From Candidatus Kaiserbacteria bacterium (GTDB taxonomy: Bacteria > Patescibacteriota > Minisyncoccia > Phycocordibacterales > UBA918): 64,000 nt of DNA. The stretch spans positions 67,725-131,724 of the forward strand of contig JAHQWD010000003.1 of the NCBI GenBank assembly GCA_019634005.1, read 5' to 3'. A model generated the notes under the pieces. The model did no database searches, was not told the origin of the DNA, and saw only the letters and a list, made by a program, of their open reading frames with translations. Below are positions 47,493 through 58,993 of the stretch, piece after piece (position 1 is the stretch's first letter; every line of letters begins with the position of its first letter). A program made the translations under genes and the position numbers.

Positions 47493-47717
47493 ATGACTAC
47501 AACTAATCCACGAATTCATATAACAACTGACAATGTTACCCGCACACTTCTTCAGAAGCTGGCGAAGCGTGACGACACATCACTCGCAAGTAAGGCGGAG
47601 GAGTATCTTCGTATTGGGCTTGCACTCGCAGAAGATATGGAACTTTCAGCCATTGCAGCAGAGCGTATGAAGACTCCTCGATCAAAGTATATTTCACATG
47701 ATGCTGTATGGGGTTAG
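47493..47717 (+). CDS. Antitoxin (ribbon-helix-helix/CopG-like) of a type II toxin-antitoxin pair
   Basis: Small, precedes and overlaps the RelE/ParE toxin by 10 nt. N-terminal beta-strand plus helices. Confidence 0.55.
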   Translation: MTTTNPRIHITTDNVTRTLLQKLAKRDDTSLASKAEEYLRIGLALAEDMELSAIAAERMKTPRSKYISHDAVWG

Positions 47718-47998
47718 ACGTCAACTATCATCCGCATGTGCTGTCACACGATATTCCAGATCTTTCAAAGACAATTCGTACGCGAATTAAAAAAGCAATA
47801 GAGAAAAAACTGTGTTCACATCCTGAGATATTTGGCGAACCTCTCAGAGGCTCGCTCGTGCCGCTGTGGAAGTTACGCGTAGGTGATTATCGCATTGTGT
47901 ATGATTTTAAGGGTGTGACTGTTTATATTCATGCAATAGGTCATCGAAAGCATATCTATACGCGTATTGCTCCCAAACGAACGCGGTTAGAAGACTAG
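47708..47998 (+). CDS. RelE/ParE-family toxin
   Basis: PLWKLRVGDYRIVYDFKGVTVYIHAIGHRK is typical of RelE/ParE. Confidence 0.75.
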   Translation: MGLDVNYHPHVLSHDIPDLSKTIRTRIKKAIEKKLCSHPEIFGEPLRGSLVPLWKLRVGDYRIVYDFKGVTVYIHAIGHRKHIYTRIAPKRTRLED

Positions 47999-49073: not shown

Positions 49074-49143
49074 TGCCCGATCGTCTAATGGCAGGACGCT
49101 TGGTTTTGGTCCAAGAAATTGGGGTTCGAGTCCCTGTCGGGCA
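49074..49143 (+). tRNA. tRNA-Gln (anticodon UUG), CCA not encoded
   Basis: Acceptor tgcccga/tcgggca, anticodon stem-loop cttgg-ttTTGgt-ccaag, T-arm tgggg-ttcgagt-ccctg. Hmm, T-arm read as tgggg... by eye. Discriminator G. Confidence 0.75.
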
Positions 49144-49316
49144 GCTGTCAAGGAGGGGACACCGTCTAGGGTGTGACATCCGCCTTTATTTTGAGTCATA
49201 TTTTACGAGCAAAAAGTTCTGAACTTTTGTGGTTTTTATGCACACCCCAAAGGTATTTCCGAACTCTCTTCAGCATGTGATTATGCAGGTGTTCTATAAG
49301 CATAATCACCGCACAT

Positions 49317-49505
49317 ATGCAGAAACGTAGAGTGGTCGTCAGAGACCCCAAAGATCTCCCACACATCGATCCCAAGGATTACGTCTTCTCTGAAGAAACG
49401 GTCAGGTCACTGACCGAACTCGCACTGCTTCTCAACGATATTGAGATGGAGGAGAGGGCTGAGGCGGAGAAGGGAAACAAGAAACATATTAACCATAGAC
49501 ACTGA
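49317..49505 (+). CDS. Small hypothetical ORF (62 aa) preceded by an 11-bp inverted repeat
   Basis: The ORF is immediately downstream of gtgattatgc-N13-gcataatcac. There is no clear SD. Confidence 0.2.
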   Translation: MQKRRVVVRDPKDLPHIDPKDYVFSEETVRSLTELALLLNDIEMEERAEAEKGNKKHINHRH

Positions 49506-49595
49506 CACCCAGTTTCGCCATCGGTAGCTTCTATACATCTTTAGGTGTAGAATTCAGTTATTACCAACTCATATTGCAAATTAAGGCGAGCATGT

Positions 49596-52241
49596 ATGGC
49601 CGCAGACCCCATTGATGATATCGAAAAATGGTCCCAAGACCTTGTCCCTTGGAAACGAGACGTCTTGAGGCGACTAGCAACAGGCGCAGAGTTTTCTGAG
49701 GCTGACTACAGTTCGACGCTTTCAATGGTCAAAGAAATTGCAGGCTTTAAGCTCTCCTCCAAGCCACCGGCCGCCATACCTTTTACGAAAAGCCATTTTG
49801 CTGCAGGCGCTACTACACCACTTACCCTTAAGGGCATCACCAACATCCAGAACATCAATCAACTTACCGCTAATGCCCAGCTAGATTTTTGCCCTAAAGC
49901 ATTGACGATTATTTATGGTCGGAACGGAAGCGGAAAGAGTGGCTTTGCCCGCATCTTAAGGACTGCATGTCGGACGAGAATAGAGAACCCAGCAAAACTC
50001 AAAGTTCTATCTGACGTATATGGAGACAGCTCGGGCCCCCAAGCCGCTGATATCGTAATAGACAACGGTAGTGGTGACACATCAATAAAATGGACACCAG
50101 GCCAAACTGCCATCGCAGAGCTGATGCAAGTTGCGGTATTCGATACAGTCTCTGCACAACTGTATGTGGACAATGGAAATCAAATCCGTTTTCTCCCGTT
50201 CGGGCTAGCGTTGCCGCATAGGCTCAATACCGTATGTTTGCAGTTGAAAGAAATACTGGAGGCTGAGCGAAAATCTGAAGTTGGTAACAAGGTGAGTATG
50301 ACGGCAATTAACTTCGACGTCACGCAAGATACTAAGGCACAGAAATTTGAAAGATCGTTAAGTCAAGCTACTACTGATACCGCGATTGCTACAGCAGCAA
50401 AGTTTACCTCCGACGACGAAGCTCGGCTGGAAGAAATTCGGAAGGCTCTATCTGCAGGAGACGCTGCGCTTGCCGATCTGACGGCATTTGAGAAATGGTT
50501 AAGGGACTTAGCGACAGAATGCGAAGAAGCGGAAAAAGGATTCTCAGATAAAGAATTAAAGGCACTTGAAAAGATATACGAAGAGGCACGGTCTGCCCGT
50601 ACCGCGGCAACTGTTGCTGCAAAAGCAATGTTCACTGATGAGCCATTGCCCGGCGTGGGAAGCAAGAGCTGGAGAGCTCTTTGGCATGCTGCTCGCGATT
50701 TCTCTGTACAAGAAGCCTATGTTGACCGCGATTTTCCAATAACCCTTGAAGACGACGCTGCAGCGGCATGTGTACTGTGTCAACAGCCTTTAACTTCTGA
50801 TGCCTCTGCTCGCATGAAGCGCTTCCAGAAGTATTTAGACGACACACTCGGCGTGGCCGCTACCAAAGCTGAAGGAATTGTATCCGAAGCGCAGAAGAAC
50901 CTTAAGACGATTGAATTGCTGGAAGCGTCCGACTTTGAGGCTCGCGTCGAACAGGTAAGGAAACGAAACAATTCTCTCGCAGATGCGCTGGCAACTTTTA
51001 AAACCACGGTAAAGAAACGGAGAGCAATTGCGTCCTCTTACTTATCTGGTGAAGAGGCCGAAACCGCGCCATTGCTGGTGAGCGTTGTTAAAGCACTTAC
51101 AGAACTGCTACAAAAAATTCAGAAGGAGAAAGAAGCGCTAGAGAAAGCAAACAATGCCCCCGATCGGGCGCTACTTGTTGCGGAAAAAGCGGAGCTGGAA
51201 GATCTAAAAACACTCGCAGCGAATAAGGACCGCCTCACAACCCGACGAGACCTACTCCGCCTAGATCATGCATATGCCAAGGCACTTACTCAAGTTGGGA
51301 CTACGGGTATTACTCGGCGCGCAAACGATCTTATCGATACCCACCTTACAAGCGCGGTTGTAAAGCAGTTTGATACAGAGCGTGAACGTTTTGAAATCAT
51401 GCACCTTAAGATAGGTCTGGCTCGACGAAGTGGGCAAACAAAAGCAGAGTTTGATGTTAGCCCGCAGACCAAATTGACGAGGGTCACCTCCGAAATACTT
51501 AGTGAGGGAGAACAGCGGGCGTTGGCACTAGCTGGTTTTTTGACTGAAGTCGAATTGACTGATGGTAAAGGCCCAATTGTAATTGACGACCCAGTATCTT
51601 CGCTGGACCGAGATAGAAGTATCAAGGTTGCTGAACGAATTGCAGAAGAAGCGACTAAACGTCAGGTGATTGTCTTTACCCATGACATGGTCTTTTTCAA
51701 TGAGTTAAGCAAGGCTGCAGACTCGCTGGGTATTGAACCCGTAACCGTTGGCCTTTTCCGAGATAAGGACGCAGCAGGGAAAGTAGACCCAGCGGGGGTA
51801 TCTTGGAAGGGTCTAAATGTTTCCAAGCGCATAGGTAAAATTAAGAATGATTCTGCATCACTGGCCAAATTGTACAAGACGAGTCCTTCTGACTACGAGA
51901 TGCGAGTAAAGGGCCTGTATGGTCGATTACGCGACACCTATGAGCGCGCTGTTGAAGAGGTGATCTTTAACGATATCGTGCGCCGAGGAACGGATGTGAT
52001 CCAAACACAGTTGCTTCGGAAAGTACGTTTGTCTGATGGGCTAGCAATTCGCTTTTATGAAGGGATGACCAAGGCAAATACGCACAGTCATGACAATCCC
52101 GCTTCTGACACCGTGCCAGTCCCCACGCCAGACGAATTCAAAAATGATATCGCTGCTTTTGAAAAGTTGATTGTTGATCTCAAGGCAGAGGGTGTGGCTG
52201 CCGAGGCCGCACGACCTCAAATGAAACCCAAAAAGGATTAA
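49596..52241 (+). CDS. Rad50/RloC-like ABC ATPase with coiled-coil CxxC zinc hook and a C-terminal R-x3-E...H module (putative anticodon-nuclease-type defense protein)
   Basis: Walker A IIYGRNGSGKSGF (about aa 105). A roughly 500-aa insertion with heptad-like Ala/Glu/Lys-rich stretches. CVLC at about aa 392 in its middle. ABC signature LSEGEQRALALA, Walker B IVIDDPVSSLD, H-loop VIVFTHD. The C-terminal 190 aa contains GRLRDTYERAVEE and THSH. Confidence 0.6.
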   Translation: MAADPIDDIEKWSQDLVPWKRDVLRRLATGAEFSEADYSSTLSMVKEIAGFKLSSKPPAAIPFTKSHFAAGATTPLTLKGITNIQNINQLTANAQLDFCPKALTIIYGRNGSGKSGFARILRTACRTRIENPAKLKVLSDVYGDSSGPQAADIVIDNGSGDTSIKWTPGQTAIAELMQVAVFDTVSAQLYVDNGNQIRFLPFGLALPHRLNTVCLQLKEILEAERKSEVGNKVSMTAINFDVTQDTKAQKFERSLSQATTDTAIATAAKFTSDDEARLEEIRKALSAGDAALADLTAFEKWLRDLATECEEAEKGFSDKELKALEKIYEEARSARTAATVAAKAMFTDEPLPGVGSKSWRALWHAARDFSVQEAYVDRDFPITLEDDAAAACVLCQQPLTSDASARMKRFQKYLDDTLGVAATKAEGIVSEAQKNLKTIELLEASDFEARVEQVRKRNNSLADALATFKTTVKKRRAIASSYLSGEEAETAPLLVSVVKALTELLQKIQKEKEALEKANNAPDRALLVAEKAELEDLKTLAANKDRLTTRRDLLRLDHAYAKALTQVGTTGITRRANDLIDTHLTSAVVKQFDTERERFEIMHLKIGLARRSGQTKAEFDVSPQTKLTRVTSEILSEGEQRALALAGFLTEVELTDGKGPIVIDDPVSSLDRDRSIKVAERIAEEATKRQVIVFTHDMVFFNELSKAADSLGIEPVTVGLFRDKDAAGKVDPAGVSWKGLNVSKRIGKIKNDSASLAKLYKTSPSDYEMRVKGLYGRLRDTYERAVEEVIFNDIVRRGTDVIQTQLLRKVRLSDGLAIRFYEGMTKANTHSHDNPASDTVPVPTPDEFKNDIAAFEKLIVDLKAEGVAAEAARPQMKPKKD

Positions 52242-52277
52242 TCAATACATAAATCAAGCTTTCAGCCCCGAAACCAA

Positions 52278-52868
52278 ATGACTTCATTCTTATATTTTGC
52301 ATACGGCTCAAACATGTTGACTGAACGTCTGGTTAGACGTTGCGAGAGCGCTTCTGTGGTAGGTGTTGCCGAGGTTTCTTCATGTCAGTTGCGCTTTAAC
52401 AAGATCAGCAAGTCTGATGGCTCAGGTAAAGGTTCTATAGAGAGCACTGACCAACAGTCTGATAAAGTCTATGGGGTTGTCTTTCGGATTAATTCCGACG
52501 AATTAGACGATCTAGATAAGTTTGAAGGATATGGTAGCGGCTATGATCGTGACGACAAATTGCCAGCCACACTAGTCGGTAAAGGTCTGCCCATTGAAGC
52601 AACAACGTACGTTGCTACGGATATTGATGACAAGTTATACCCTTATGACTGGTACCTAGCGCTAGTTATTGCAGGAGCTAGAGAACACCATCTTCCTATA
52701 GAATATGTCGCAGCGGTTGAAAATGTGACCCATGTTCCTGATCCTGATGAAAATCGCAGATCACGGAAGGAAGCACTTGATATCCTAAAGGCAACAGACA
52801 ATTGGGATCTATATCTCAGGTTGGTAAAGGCTGCTAACCGAGGAGTGGGAACCGGGGTGGGGTATTAG
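52278..52868 (+). CDS. Gamma-glutamyl cyclotransferase (GGCT/AIG2)-like protein with an approx. 80-aa C-terminal extension
   Basis: N-terminal LYFAYGSNM...RL..R, downstream VYGVVFRI...LD..EG....Y.R. Only 36 nt after the RloC-like gene, on the same strand. Confidence 0.65.
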   Translation: MTSFLYFAYGSNMLTERLVRRCESASVVGVAEVSSCQLRFNKISKSDGSGKGSIESTDQQSDKVYGVVFRINSDELDDLDKFEGYGSGYDRDDKLPATLVGKGLPIEATTYVATDIDDKLYPYDWYLALVIAGAREHHLPIEYVAAVENVTHVPDPDENRRSRKEALDILKATDNWDLYLRLVKAANRGVGTGVGY

Positions 52869-53040
52869 CTCTCCTCAAGCAACGCCTTCAATTCCACAAT
52901 GCTTTCCTTAATCTCGCAAGGATTGACAAGTTCTGAAATCCATGCTGTGGGGCAGCAGCTTAGAGGTAGGTTCGGTTTCCGAACTGCATCGAAAGTCACC
53001 ATACAGTTATTGAAGACGCCGCAGGCGAATCCAGACAGAA

Positions 53041-53067
53041 AGACCGTCCGAAAGGACGGCTTTTTTG
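53041..53067 (+). terminator. Intrinsic terminator (ccgtcc-GAAA-ggacgg plus TTTTTT) after the GGCT-like gene
   Basis: Seen in sequence. Confidence 0.6.
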
Positions 53068-53106
53068 TTAAACAAATTATGCCAAGTTAGACATTCTTTG
53101 ATTGAA

Positions 53107-53467
53107 ATGGAAAATACGAAATCGCTCGAAGATTTTACACCTGAGTTGAGAAAGAAGATTCTCGAGAAGGATGGTTATAGATGTGTTGTATGTGGACGGG
53201 GGAGAGATGAAGGAGTGGAACTTCATGTGGACCACATCAAGGCAAAAAGATCTTGGAGGGAAAGCAACGTATGAGAATGGTCAAACACTGTGCGCGCAAC
53301 ATAATTTCTTGAAAAAGAACCTCAAGCAGACAGAAATGGGGAAGAAACTCCTTATAAGACTCTATGAACTTTCACAGACAAAGAGAGATAAAAAGTTGAT
53401 GGAATTTACTACAGAAATCCTTGCGGTCTTTGAGAAGAATAATATTGATGACCAGATAAAATGGTAA
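53107..53467 (+). pseudogene. HNH endonuclease, disrupted by a +1 frameshift at an A5 run (about 53245-53249)
   Basis: Frame 1 reads CVVCGRG...ELHVDHIKAK. Frame 2 continues DLGGKATYENGQTLCAQHNFLKKN. The two halves form one HNH motif. Confidence 0.6.
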
Positions 53468-53476
53468 GATAGACCA

Positions 53477-57775: not shown

Positions 57776-58993
57776 GTGGTATACTATACGCATATGCATA
57801 CAATAAAAAATCTTATTCCGTACAGTATTATCGGTTTTGTCGCAGTGTTTTTCTTTGCCGTACCGACACAGGCAGCGGTGCAGTGCACCTTTGATCGTGA
57901 CCTTGAAATTGGCATTGATGGAGAGGATGTGCGCTGTCTTCAGCGATACCTCAATGATGCAGGGTTCACTATTGCATCAAGCGGTGTCGGGTCTCCAGGA
58001 AATGAGACGACACTCTTCCGTACACTTACAGAAGAGGCTGTTGTACGTTGGCAGCAGGCGAATGGAATAAGTCCTGCAAGTGGGTATTTTGGCCCTCTCT
58101 CTCGTTCTAAATATGATGCACTCTTAAGTGATGCTCCGAGTAGTTCAACAACAGAAGTTTCCACACAGACGTCACAGGTACAGTCCCTTCTTGATCAGTT
58201 GGCGCTCCTTGAAAAACAGGTGGCAGAAGCAAAAGAGGAGACAGAGGTAGATGAGGATGAAGCAAAGGACATGTTGTTCCGTGCAATTGAGCAAATGAAG
58301 GAAACAGACGAACAGGTCGAAGATGCAGAAGATGATGGGGAAAACGTAGAGAACGCAGAGGATGATGCAAAAGATGCACGGGAGGATCTCTATGAGGCAA
58401 TGGAGGCATATTTAAACAAGCAGTTTGAGCGAGCACTCTCATATGCAGAAGATGCGTTTGATGGAGCGCTCGATGCTTATGAAGATGCTGGCGGAGAGAC
58501 TGAGGAGGATGAACTCGAAGAGGAGTTAGATGAGCTCGATGATGATATTGATGATGCGTGGGACCAGATTGAAGAAGCCGAAGATGACGACAAAGAGGTG
58601 GACGAATCTGAGGAAATCCTTGAAGAAGCAGAAGAGCTACTTGAGCAGGCGGAAGACGAGTTAGATAGTGGAGATTACGATGATGTTCGCGATCTCATTG
58701 AGGATATTGAAGATCTCATTGAGGACGCTATTGATGCAATCGGGGAGTCTAAAGAATCTCGTGCTGAGGATGCTATTGAAGAAGCTGAAGATCTTATCGA
58801 CTACGTAAAGGGACGTATAGAAGACGCTGAGGACGATGGGGATGATGTAGACGAGGCAGAGGACTTAATCGAGGAAGCCGAGGACCTGCTTGATGAAGCC
58901 GAGGATGCCTTTGATGATGAGGATTACGAAGAGGCTGAAGAACTTGCAGAAGATGCTGAGGATGCAGCTGAGGATGCACTTGAGGAGCTTTAA
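57776..58993 (+). CDS. Secreted protein: peptidoglycan-binding-like domain plus approx. 270-aa extremely acidic (Glu/Asp/Ala) helical tail
   Basis: Signal peptide (AVPTQA|AVQ). A PG_binding_1-like region (RCLQRYLNDAGF...WQQANGISPASGYFGP). The tail is built from EDAEDDG-type repeats. Confidence 0.55.
   Translation: MVYYTHMHTIKNLIPYSIIGFVAVFFFAVPTQAAVQCTFDRDLEIGIDGEDVRCLQRYLNDAGFTIASSGVGSPGNETTLFRTLTEEAVVRWQQANGISPASGYFGPLSRSKYDALLSDAPSSSTTEVSTQTSQVQSLLDQLALLEKQVAEAKEETEVDEDEAKDMLFRAIEQMKETDEQVEDAEDDGENVENAEDDAKDAREDLYEAMEAYLNKQFERALSYAEDAFDGALDAYEDAGGETEEDELEEELDELDDDIDDAWDQIEEAEDDDKEVDESEEILEEAEELLEQAEDELDSGDYDDVRDLIEDIEDLIEDAIDAIGESKESRAEDAIEEAEDLIDYVKGRIEDAEDDGDDVDEAEDLIEEAEDLLDEAEDAFDDEDYEEAEELAEDAEDAAEDALEEL

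Follow-up and report, generated by a model that had tools for sequence, protein, structure and literature searches.

The gene at 49596..52241 (+) in a 64,000-nucleotide stretch of a Candidatus Kaiserbacteria genome (contig JAHQWD010000003.1, positions 67,725 to 131,724; hereafter the window) raises the question of whether its product, an ATP-binding cassette (ABC) ATPase split by a helical insert with a central CxxC and followed by an additional C-terminal domain, is an RloC-type abortive-infection nuclease or an ATPase of another kind. A preliminary description made from the sequence had read it as an RloC/Rad50-like ATPase with a zinc hook and a putative anticodon-nuclease-like module. The analysis presented here assigned the product with high confidence to the long form of the RloC-like proteins in the family PDC-S06. 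Its role as a single-polypeptide RloC-type abortive-infection enzyme of this long class is proposed with moderate confidence, and it appears fairly probable that the protein works as an ATPase-gated ribonuclease (RNase) or tRNase. The family is already known from a published RloC list of 2008 and from PADLOC, and the exact protein has already been deposited.

Assignment to the RloC-type family

Profile searches placed the protein in this family over nearly its whole length. The PADLOC PDC-S06 model PDLC04891 matched residues 5-863 with an E-value of 7.7e-180, corresponding to profile positions 3-854 of 858. The Pfam profile AAA_13, which the preliminary description had suggested as a check, matched residues 103-798 with an E-value of 1.4e-26, accompanied by weaker matches to SMC_N, AAA_21, and AAA_23, and the ABC matches from NCBIfam were all sub-threshold. 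Hundreds of full-length homologues were found by search; those listed were about 880 amino acids long and 59-66% identical, and the organism-named ones were alphaproteobacterial. Considering the two profile matches together with the hundreds of full-length homologues, a chance resemblance is excluded. An identical protein was found to be deposited as 'AAA family ATPase [Candidatus Kaiserbacteria bacterium]' from a 379-kb contig.

In the work of Davidov & Kaufmann (2008), RloC was delimited by ABC ATPase motifs, a central CXXC, and an Arg-x3-Glu-x36-52-His motif in which Ser often precedes the His, and the equivalent key residues of Geobacillus RloC are K44, C291, D572, R692, E696, and H737. 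All of these motifs occur in the window protein, namely the ABC motifs, the CXXC, and R779-x3-E783-x48-S831-H832. Table S1 of the same paper contains many RloC orthologues of 860-897 amino acids, and its entry 30 is an 881-amino-acid protein of Sphingomonas wittichii RW1 (YP_001260375) flanked by a carbamoyl transferase. A tblastn search of the plasmid collection led to plasmid pSWIT02 (CP000701.1), where Swit_4992, an 881-amino-acid 'hypothetical protein', lies directly downstream of the carbamoyltransferase gene Swit_4991, matching Table S1 entry 30. The window protein and Swit_4992 share 61% identity over 880 residues with zero gaps. The window protein is an RloC orthologue under the delimitation of the founding paper, and this gapless relationship to a listed orthologue supports the RloC-like reading of the preliminary description.

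Domain layout and conserved residues

The open reading frame (ORF) and all motifs listed in the preliminary description were recovered by the ORF check and motif scan. The layout of the gene and its product is as follows (positions in the window, all on the + strand).

49596..52241, +: complete ORF with an ATG start, 881 amino acids, long-form RloC-like ABC ATPase (PDC-S06; AAA_13)
49596..49811, +: N-terminal helical domain, residues 1-72, specific to the long class
49821..50210, +: N-lobe of the ABC head, residues ~76-205
49917..49940, +: Walker A GRNGSGKS, residues 108-115 (motif scan)
50211..50720, +: ascending helical or coiled-coil arm, residues ~206-375 (AlphaFold helices; heptad score)
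50769..50780, +: CVLC, residues 392-395, putative zinc hook (motif scan)
50796..51395, +: descending helical or coiled-coil arm, residues ~401-600 (AlphaFold helices; heptad score)
51396..51761, +: C-lobe of the ABC head, residues ~601-722
51498..51515, +: ABC signature LSEGEQ, residues 635-640 (motif scan)
51576..51608, +: Walker B/D-loop IVIDDPVSSLD, residues 661-671 (motif scan)
51681..51683, +: H-loop histidine H696 (motif scan)
51801..52211, +: C-terminal all-helical domain, residues ~736-872, putative HEPN-like RNase effector
51930..51956, +: R779-D-T-Y-E783-R-A-V-E787, proposed Arg-x3-Glu part of an anticodon-nuclease triad
51984..51986, +: R797, alternative candidate for the catalytic Arg
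52071..52094, +: K826-A-N-T-H-S-H832-D833, with the proposed catalytic His; resembles the HEPN Rx4-6H motif

The Walker A motif and the ABC signature are separated by 527 amino acids, in agreement with the ~530 first estimated, and the head is split by a helical insert of ~390 amino acids (residues ~205-600). CVLC at residues 392-395 is the sole CxxC of the protein and lies near the midpoint of this insert, as had been described. The Walker A motif is present as reported, but not at the extreme N-terminus, as a conserved helical domain of ~72 amino acids precedes the ABC head.

In the full-length AlphaFold model, which has a mean predicted local distance difference test (pLDDT) score of 76.9, a three-helix N-terminal domain is followed by an ABC head split by long helices at 202-374 and 401-599, with the CxxC located in a low-confidence loop between the two. 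A crude home-written heptad score was raised at residues 261-345 and 401-520, flanking the CxxC. Together with the invariance of the two cysteines described below, the model and the heptad score bore out the helical, heptad-like insert with an apical CxxC that had been read from the sequence. A Foldseek search of the full model against the PDB returned the heads with coiled coils of SMC, cohesin, Rad50, MukB, and JetC as best matches, with E-values down to 1e-7. The search of the full protein against PDB sequences gave marginal Rad50 matches only (E ~0.07), and no solved RloC or PrrC structure surfaced in it.

Residue conservation was examined among relatives of the C-terminal domain. A search with the C-terminal 182 residues against 1.84 billion representative proteins recovered 1127 of them at E up to 1e-3. 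Almost all full-length matches were 855-900 amino acids long with the matched region at the C-terminal end, and these sequences point to one uniform architecture across the relatives. Conservation was scored in 68 full-length representatives, which share 27-65% identity with the query in the C-terminal domain. K114, C392, C395, D664, D665, H696, R779, E783, E787, R797, H832, and P843 were invariant in 68/68, T804 (67/68), Y775 (66/68), and D833 (66/68) were near-invariant, and position 826 was Lys or Arg in 61/68. The motif scan located RDTYE at residues 779-783 and THSH at 829-832, with 48 residues leading from R779-x3-E783 to S831-H832. The R-x3-E and His cluster of the preliminary description stood the comparison as far as R779, E783, and H832 are concerned, all being invariant, but not as a cluster, as H832 is conserved along with D833 whereas H830 is variable. 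The zinc-hook consensus in long-class relatives is C-[VP]-L-C-Q-Q, and W12, W19, D22, and L24-R25-R26-L27 of the N-terminal domain are invariant among close homologues.

Long and short classes and the C-terminal domain

Treated as a single family in the 2008 paper and in PADLOC, these proteins were found to comprise two classes with a common zinc-hook ATPase and C-terminal domains that are not detectably related. The window protein is a member of the long class, whose proteins are ~860-900 amino acids in length and carry an extra N-terminal domain of ~72-75 amino acids; this domain is absent from short-class RloC and has no Pfam match. The short class is represented by proteins of 728-797 amino acids among the distant matches of the genome scan. 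Their Walker A motif, GWNGSGKT, lies near residue 36 and their CxFC near residue 280, and the C-terminal tail reads 'PNxARKxLExFLxFR ... RIxRFxxTHSHP'. In the short-class ORF of locus L079, the Glu-to-His gap is 41 residues, compared with 40 in Geobacillus RloC. Both classes lie inside PDC-S06 under different sub-models. Homologues of one short-class protein bear the JGI name 'wobble nucleotide-excising tRNase', whereas long-class homologues are called 'EcfA2' or 'ABC-type ... ATPase' (e.g. 'ABC-type lipoprotein export ATPase'); the long class is named as generic ABC ATPases and is therefore missed by automatic pipelines. Short-class RloC was also observed in other lineages of the Candidate Phyla Radiation (CPR), namely a Patescibacteria group bacterium, Peregrinibacteria, and Magasanikbacteria (L082).

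The two classes were compared by hhalign with 68 long-class and 113 short-class sequences, the latter being proteins that JGI calls 'wobble nucleotide-excising tRNase' and not Geobacillus RloC itself. At full length, the probability was 99.5% and the E-value 4.9e-23, and the alignment covered the heads and the hook, with CvLCQQxL..RLxRFE set against CaFCnQxI..RLxxLE.

The C-terminal domains gave a different picture, and several results weigh against the window protein being an RloC-type RNase. Compared alone, the C-terminal domains of the same two sets reached a probability of 0.5% with an E-value of 0.11, a smaller hhalign test reached 1.7%, and the profile comparison showed no signal in local, greedy, or global mode. 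The PADLOC PrrC model matched the window protein at ATPase residues 659-706 only; the PrrC profile check suggested in the preliminary description thus recovered the ATPase and left the C-terminal domain unmatched. In a short-class protein, the same model extends to residue 710, within the C-terminal domain. Coverage of the AAA_13 profile stops at position 645/713 in the window protein and spans 5-712 in the short-class protein. Searched alone, the long C-terminal domain had no Pfam and no PDB-sequence match, returning noise only. The assignment of the catalytic Arg is ambiguous at the sequence level as well, since the motif indicates R779 while a low-confidence stretch of the full-length hhalign pairs R797 with the Arg of short-class RloC, and the end point of the AAA_13 match roughly agrees with the latter placement. 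Moreover, a literature search found no experimental work on the long class or PDC-S06 and no RloC structure. In a PADLOC scan of 32 long-class C-terminal domains, models 04891 and 04893 matched 32/32 and 04888 matched 31/32; matches to other families were isolated and weak, and PrrC appeared in none. The early caution about a different or diverged nuclease was well placed, as no profile similarity was detected between the domain and the nuclease of short-class RloC or PrrC. An alignment of this domain to a non-nuclease family, named at the outset as evidence against the nuclease reading, did not appear in Pfam or among PDB sequences.

These results bring in another explanation, that the same RloC-type sensor carries a different effector. 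The C-terminal domain would then have been acquired independently, either as a different HEPN-like RNase whose target is mRNA, rRNA, or some other tRNA site or as a non-nuclease effector, and its R-x3-E...H likeness would be convergent or coincidental. Such an origin would agree with the lack of profile similarity between domains whose remaining sequence aligned at 99.5%, with the shortfall of the PrrC model and the early end of AAA_13 (645/713 as against 5-712), and with the JGI tRNase name being given to the short class while the long class is listed under generic ABC ATPases. In addition, several long-class entries of the 2008 table were flagged 'poor ACNase triad?'. Set against this, R, E, and H are invariant throughout the long class, and both the spacing and the Ser-His pair agree with the published RloC motif. 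The domain was modelled as all-helical with a confident four-helix bundle, which is compatible with HEPN yet not diagnostic, and HEPN toxins gave the best TM-scores for its fold, although such scores lack specificity. Among the more divergent long-class members, 'RF..GHSHSD' or 'RY..GHSQP' is found; both recall the short-class 'RF..THSHP', a hint of continuity from one class to the other. Weighing both sides, an unrelated effector is considered rather unlikely. The nuclease assignment itself is based on the motif, which is invariant, on the helical fold and common architecture, and on the listing of 2008, and not on demonstrable domain homology; the motifs suggest a tRNase function.

Proposed mechanism

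The interpretation as an RloC-type abortive-infection enzyme starts from observed features of the protein: the head is Rad50/SMC-like, an invariant CxxC lies in the central loop of the insert, and a helical domain of ~140 amino acids follows the head. This domain holds the polar set R779, E783, E787, R797, and H832, all invariant, with D833 at 66/68. Mechanistic knowledge comes from characterised RloC (PMC2610378, PMC3458546, PMC3874168), for which all biochemistry was performed with proteins of short-class length (804 and 826 amino acids). RloC itself excises the wobble nucleotide (PMC2610378, PMC3458546, PMC3874168), and the nuclease domains carried by RloC and by PrrC are assigned to HEPN (PMC3710099).

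By analogy with the Geobacillus and Acinetobacter RloC proteins, two protomers would dimerise through ATP-bound heads and a Zn2+ ion held by the four hook cysteines, and the hook and ATPase would silence the C-terminal RNase in the resting state. Upon phage attack, DNA ends or breaks would stimulate ATP hydrolysis, leading to rearrangement of the coiled coils and release of the nuclease. The released domain, presumably metal-independent and HEPN-like, would cut tRNA anticodon loops, after which translation would stop and the infection would be aborted.

Neighbourhoods of the homologues

Among 55 homologue loci, the neighbourhoods were variable and defence-island-like with no obligatory or conserved neighbour, and they included serine recombinases, type III restriction-modification genes, and an Mrr-nSTAND3 protein. 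In ~15/55 loci, the long-class homologue is immediately adjoined by an SbcCD-like pair, which is absent from the window. The pair consists of a Metallophos protein (~380-425 amino acids) and an AAA_27/SbcC-like ATPase (902 or ~1160-1190 amino acids) and was recorded at L004, L007, L008, L024, L025, L027, L039, L052, L059, L061, L062, and L065, and also at L032, L040, L003, and L084. At L025, L052, L059, L061, L062, and L065, the pair is co-oriented with the homologue and ends <300 nucleotides upstream, and in those six loci pair and homologue could form a three-gene operon. At the pSWIT02 locus (L084, CP000701.1 99873-112512), Swit_4992 belongs to a defence-like cluster together with an 'Abi family protein', an HD phosphohydrolase, and a metallophosphoesterase, after which comes a large hypothetical protein.

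Such neighbours bear on the possibility that the window protein is an SbcC/Rad50-type ATPase of DNA repair or processing, with a nuclease supplied in trans and a C-terminal domain that binds a partner or DNA. The Rad50/SMC-like architecture would suit this role, as would the metallophosphoesterase and AAA_27/SbcC-like genes beside the homologue in about 15 of the 55 loci, several of them co-oriented, and the 2008 table also contains such neighbours. However, each adjacent pair has its own SbcC-like ATPase and therefore represents a complete system, not a missing partner, and ~40/55 loci are without such a neighbour. The context is that of defence islands rather than repair operons, and an invariant R/E/H constellation is what an active site typically shows. 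The 64-kb window has no metallophosphoesterase ORF: neither an ORF with the GNH[DE] motif of SbcD/Mre11 nor a tblastn match to the SbcD-like neighbours of the homologues was detected there, in line with the first observation that an SbcD partner is lacking. A DNA-repair ATPase is accordingly judged improbable.

A further tentative proposal treats the long class (~860-900 amino acids; PDC-S06 models 04891, 04893, and 04888) as a distinct defence enzyme. It would combine the RloC-type zinc-hook sensor with two additions, a new N-terminal domain and, at the C-terminus, a HEPN-like effector that has no relationship to the RloC nuclease and is directed at a different RNA target. In about one-quarter of genomes, it might also act with the adjacent SbcCD-like pair (metallophosphoesterase and AAA_27 ATPase) as a three-gene module sensing DNA ends. 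This proposal seems doubtful at present, and the RloC-type abortive-infection enzyme is still preferred.

Genomic context in the window

The RloC-like gene lies ~450 nucleotides downstream of a tRNA-Gln(TTG) at 49074-49145, and an unconserved ORF of 62 amino acids (orf62) is located between them. A GGACT/AIG2-like (gamma-glutamylcyclotransferase-like) gene at 52278-52868 (+) starts 37 nucleotides past the RloC-like stop. A terminator-like hairpin was found at 53044-53059 and none between the two genes, which may be co-transcribed; the pairing was seen beside no homologue. Further downstream, an HNH/EndoVII gene at 53065-53467 (+) consists of two overlapping ORFs of 69 and 98 amino acids, which together look like a single gene interrupted by a frameshift, probably a pseudogene or the result of a sequencing error. 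The GGACT-like gene, orf62, and the HNH fragments never recur beside homologues, so no partner was inferred from them, and no obvious hsd or restriction-modification partner was found among the window ORFs.

The stretch at 49146-53470, comprising orf62, the RloC-like gene, the GGACT-like gene, orf63, and the broken HNH gene, is free of housekeeping genes and directly follows the tRNA-Gln in an island-like layout. It contains no integrase and no compositional shift, and when the surroundings of the tRNA-Gln and of the putative island were searched for att-like direct repeats, just two 17-mers turned up, both at chance level.

With a tRNA gene adjoining it and a frameshifted HNH gene nearby, and with its closest relatives (59-66% identity) almost all alphaproteobacterial although the host is Candidatus Kaiserbacteria, the gene might be taken for an inert leftover of horizontal transfer, or for a contaminant introduced by assembly or binning, without function in this genome. 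Its composition indicates otherwise. The GC content is 0.484 and the GC content at third codon positions (GC3) is 0.444, like those of the flanking housekeeping genes, whereas the alphaproteobacterial homologues have a GC content of 0.59-0.68 and a GC3 of 0.67-0.85, which makes contamination or a very recent transfer unlikely. The ORF is also intact and retains all invariant residues, and the 379-kb contig carries housekeeping genes on both sides. A remnant or contaminant is thus regarded as highly improbable.

Two other observations were made in the window. Just upstream of dnaX, a two-gene pair at 47493-47998 (+) encodes a protein of 74 amino acids with no Pfam match, likely an antitoxin, followed by a second protein matching ParE_toxin (3.7e-08). 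At 57776-58993 (+), a 405-amino-acid protein has an N-terminal PG_binding_1 domain and then ~270 residues of repetitive helix that is extremely rich in Asp and Glu (DUF4398-like).

Comparison with known systems

A gene deposited only as 'AAA family ATPase' can thus be interpreted as encoding a long-form RloC-like enzyme of abortive infection, adding a likely phage-defence gene to a small CPR (Kaiserbacteria) genome. Residual interest in the long class lies in its C-terminal domain, which cannot be linked by sequence to a characterised nuclease, in its N-terminal domain, and in its recurrent SbcCD-like neighbour.

Rad50/SbcC proteins share the split ABC head, the coiled coil, and the apical CxxC and are the best structural neighbours of the predicted model. 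The window protein differs in its much shorter coiled coil, in the addition of a C-terminal effector domain, in the absence of an Mre11/SbcD partner from the window, and in a weak sequence similarity (E ~0.07).

PrrC of E. coli likewise joins an ABC ATPase regulator to a C-terminal Arg/Glu/His RNase under an abortive-infection logic. It has ~400 amino acids with no coiled coil or zinc hook, in contrast to 881 amino acids with a 390-amino-acid insert here, and it always lies inside a type I restriction-modification locus, whereas no hsd-like ORF was seen among the large ORFs of the window. The Glu-to-His gap is 31 residues in PrrC and 48 in the window protein. The preliminary description was right that the spacing exceeds that of PrrC, but it is not unusual, as 48 falls inside the RloC range of 36-52.

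The four-helix bundle of the model is compatible with that of HEPN RNases (HEPN-MNT toxins, Csx1/Csm6, and LsoA). The [KR]826-x5-H832 arrangement places a basic residue 5-6 positions before the invariant His, resembling the HEPN Rx4-6H motif, and [DE]780-x3-R784 resembles the HEPN Ex3[KR] motif. The basic residue is Lys and not Arg here, and no HEPN family was matched by sequence.

The full-length profile match connects the window protein to PDC-S06, a computational candidate defence family with no assigned mechanism whose 13 models span the long and short RloC-type classes. Compared with RloC of Geobacillus kaustophilus and Acinetobacter baylyi (Davidov & Kaufmann 2008; Klaiman et al. 2012, 2014), the window protein is ~80 amino acids longer with the extra N-terminal domain, carries the Walker A motif GRNGSGKS in place of GWNGSGKT, and has a C-terminal domain for which no profile similarity to the nuclease domain of the short class was detected. 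It shares with RloC the ABC head, the coiled-coil insert with a central CXXC, a C-terminal helical domain bearing R-x3-E-x(36-52)-(S)H, and the organisation as a single-gene system in variable islands.

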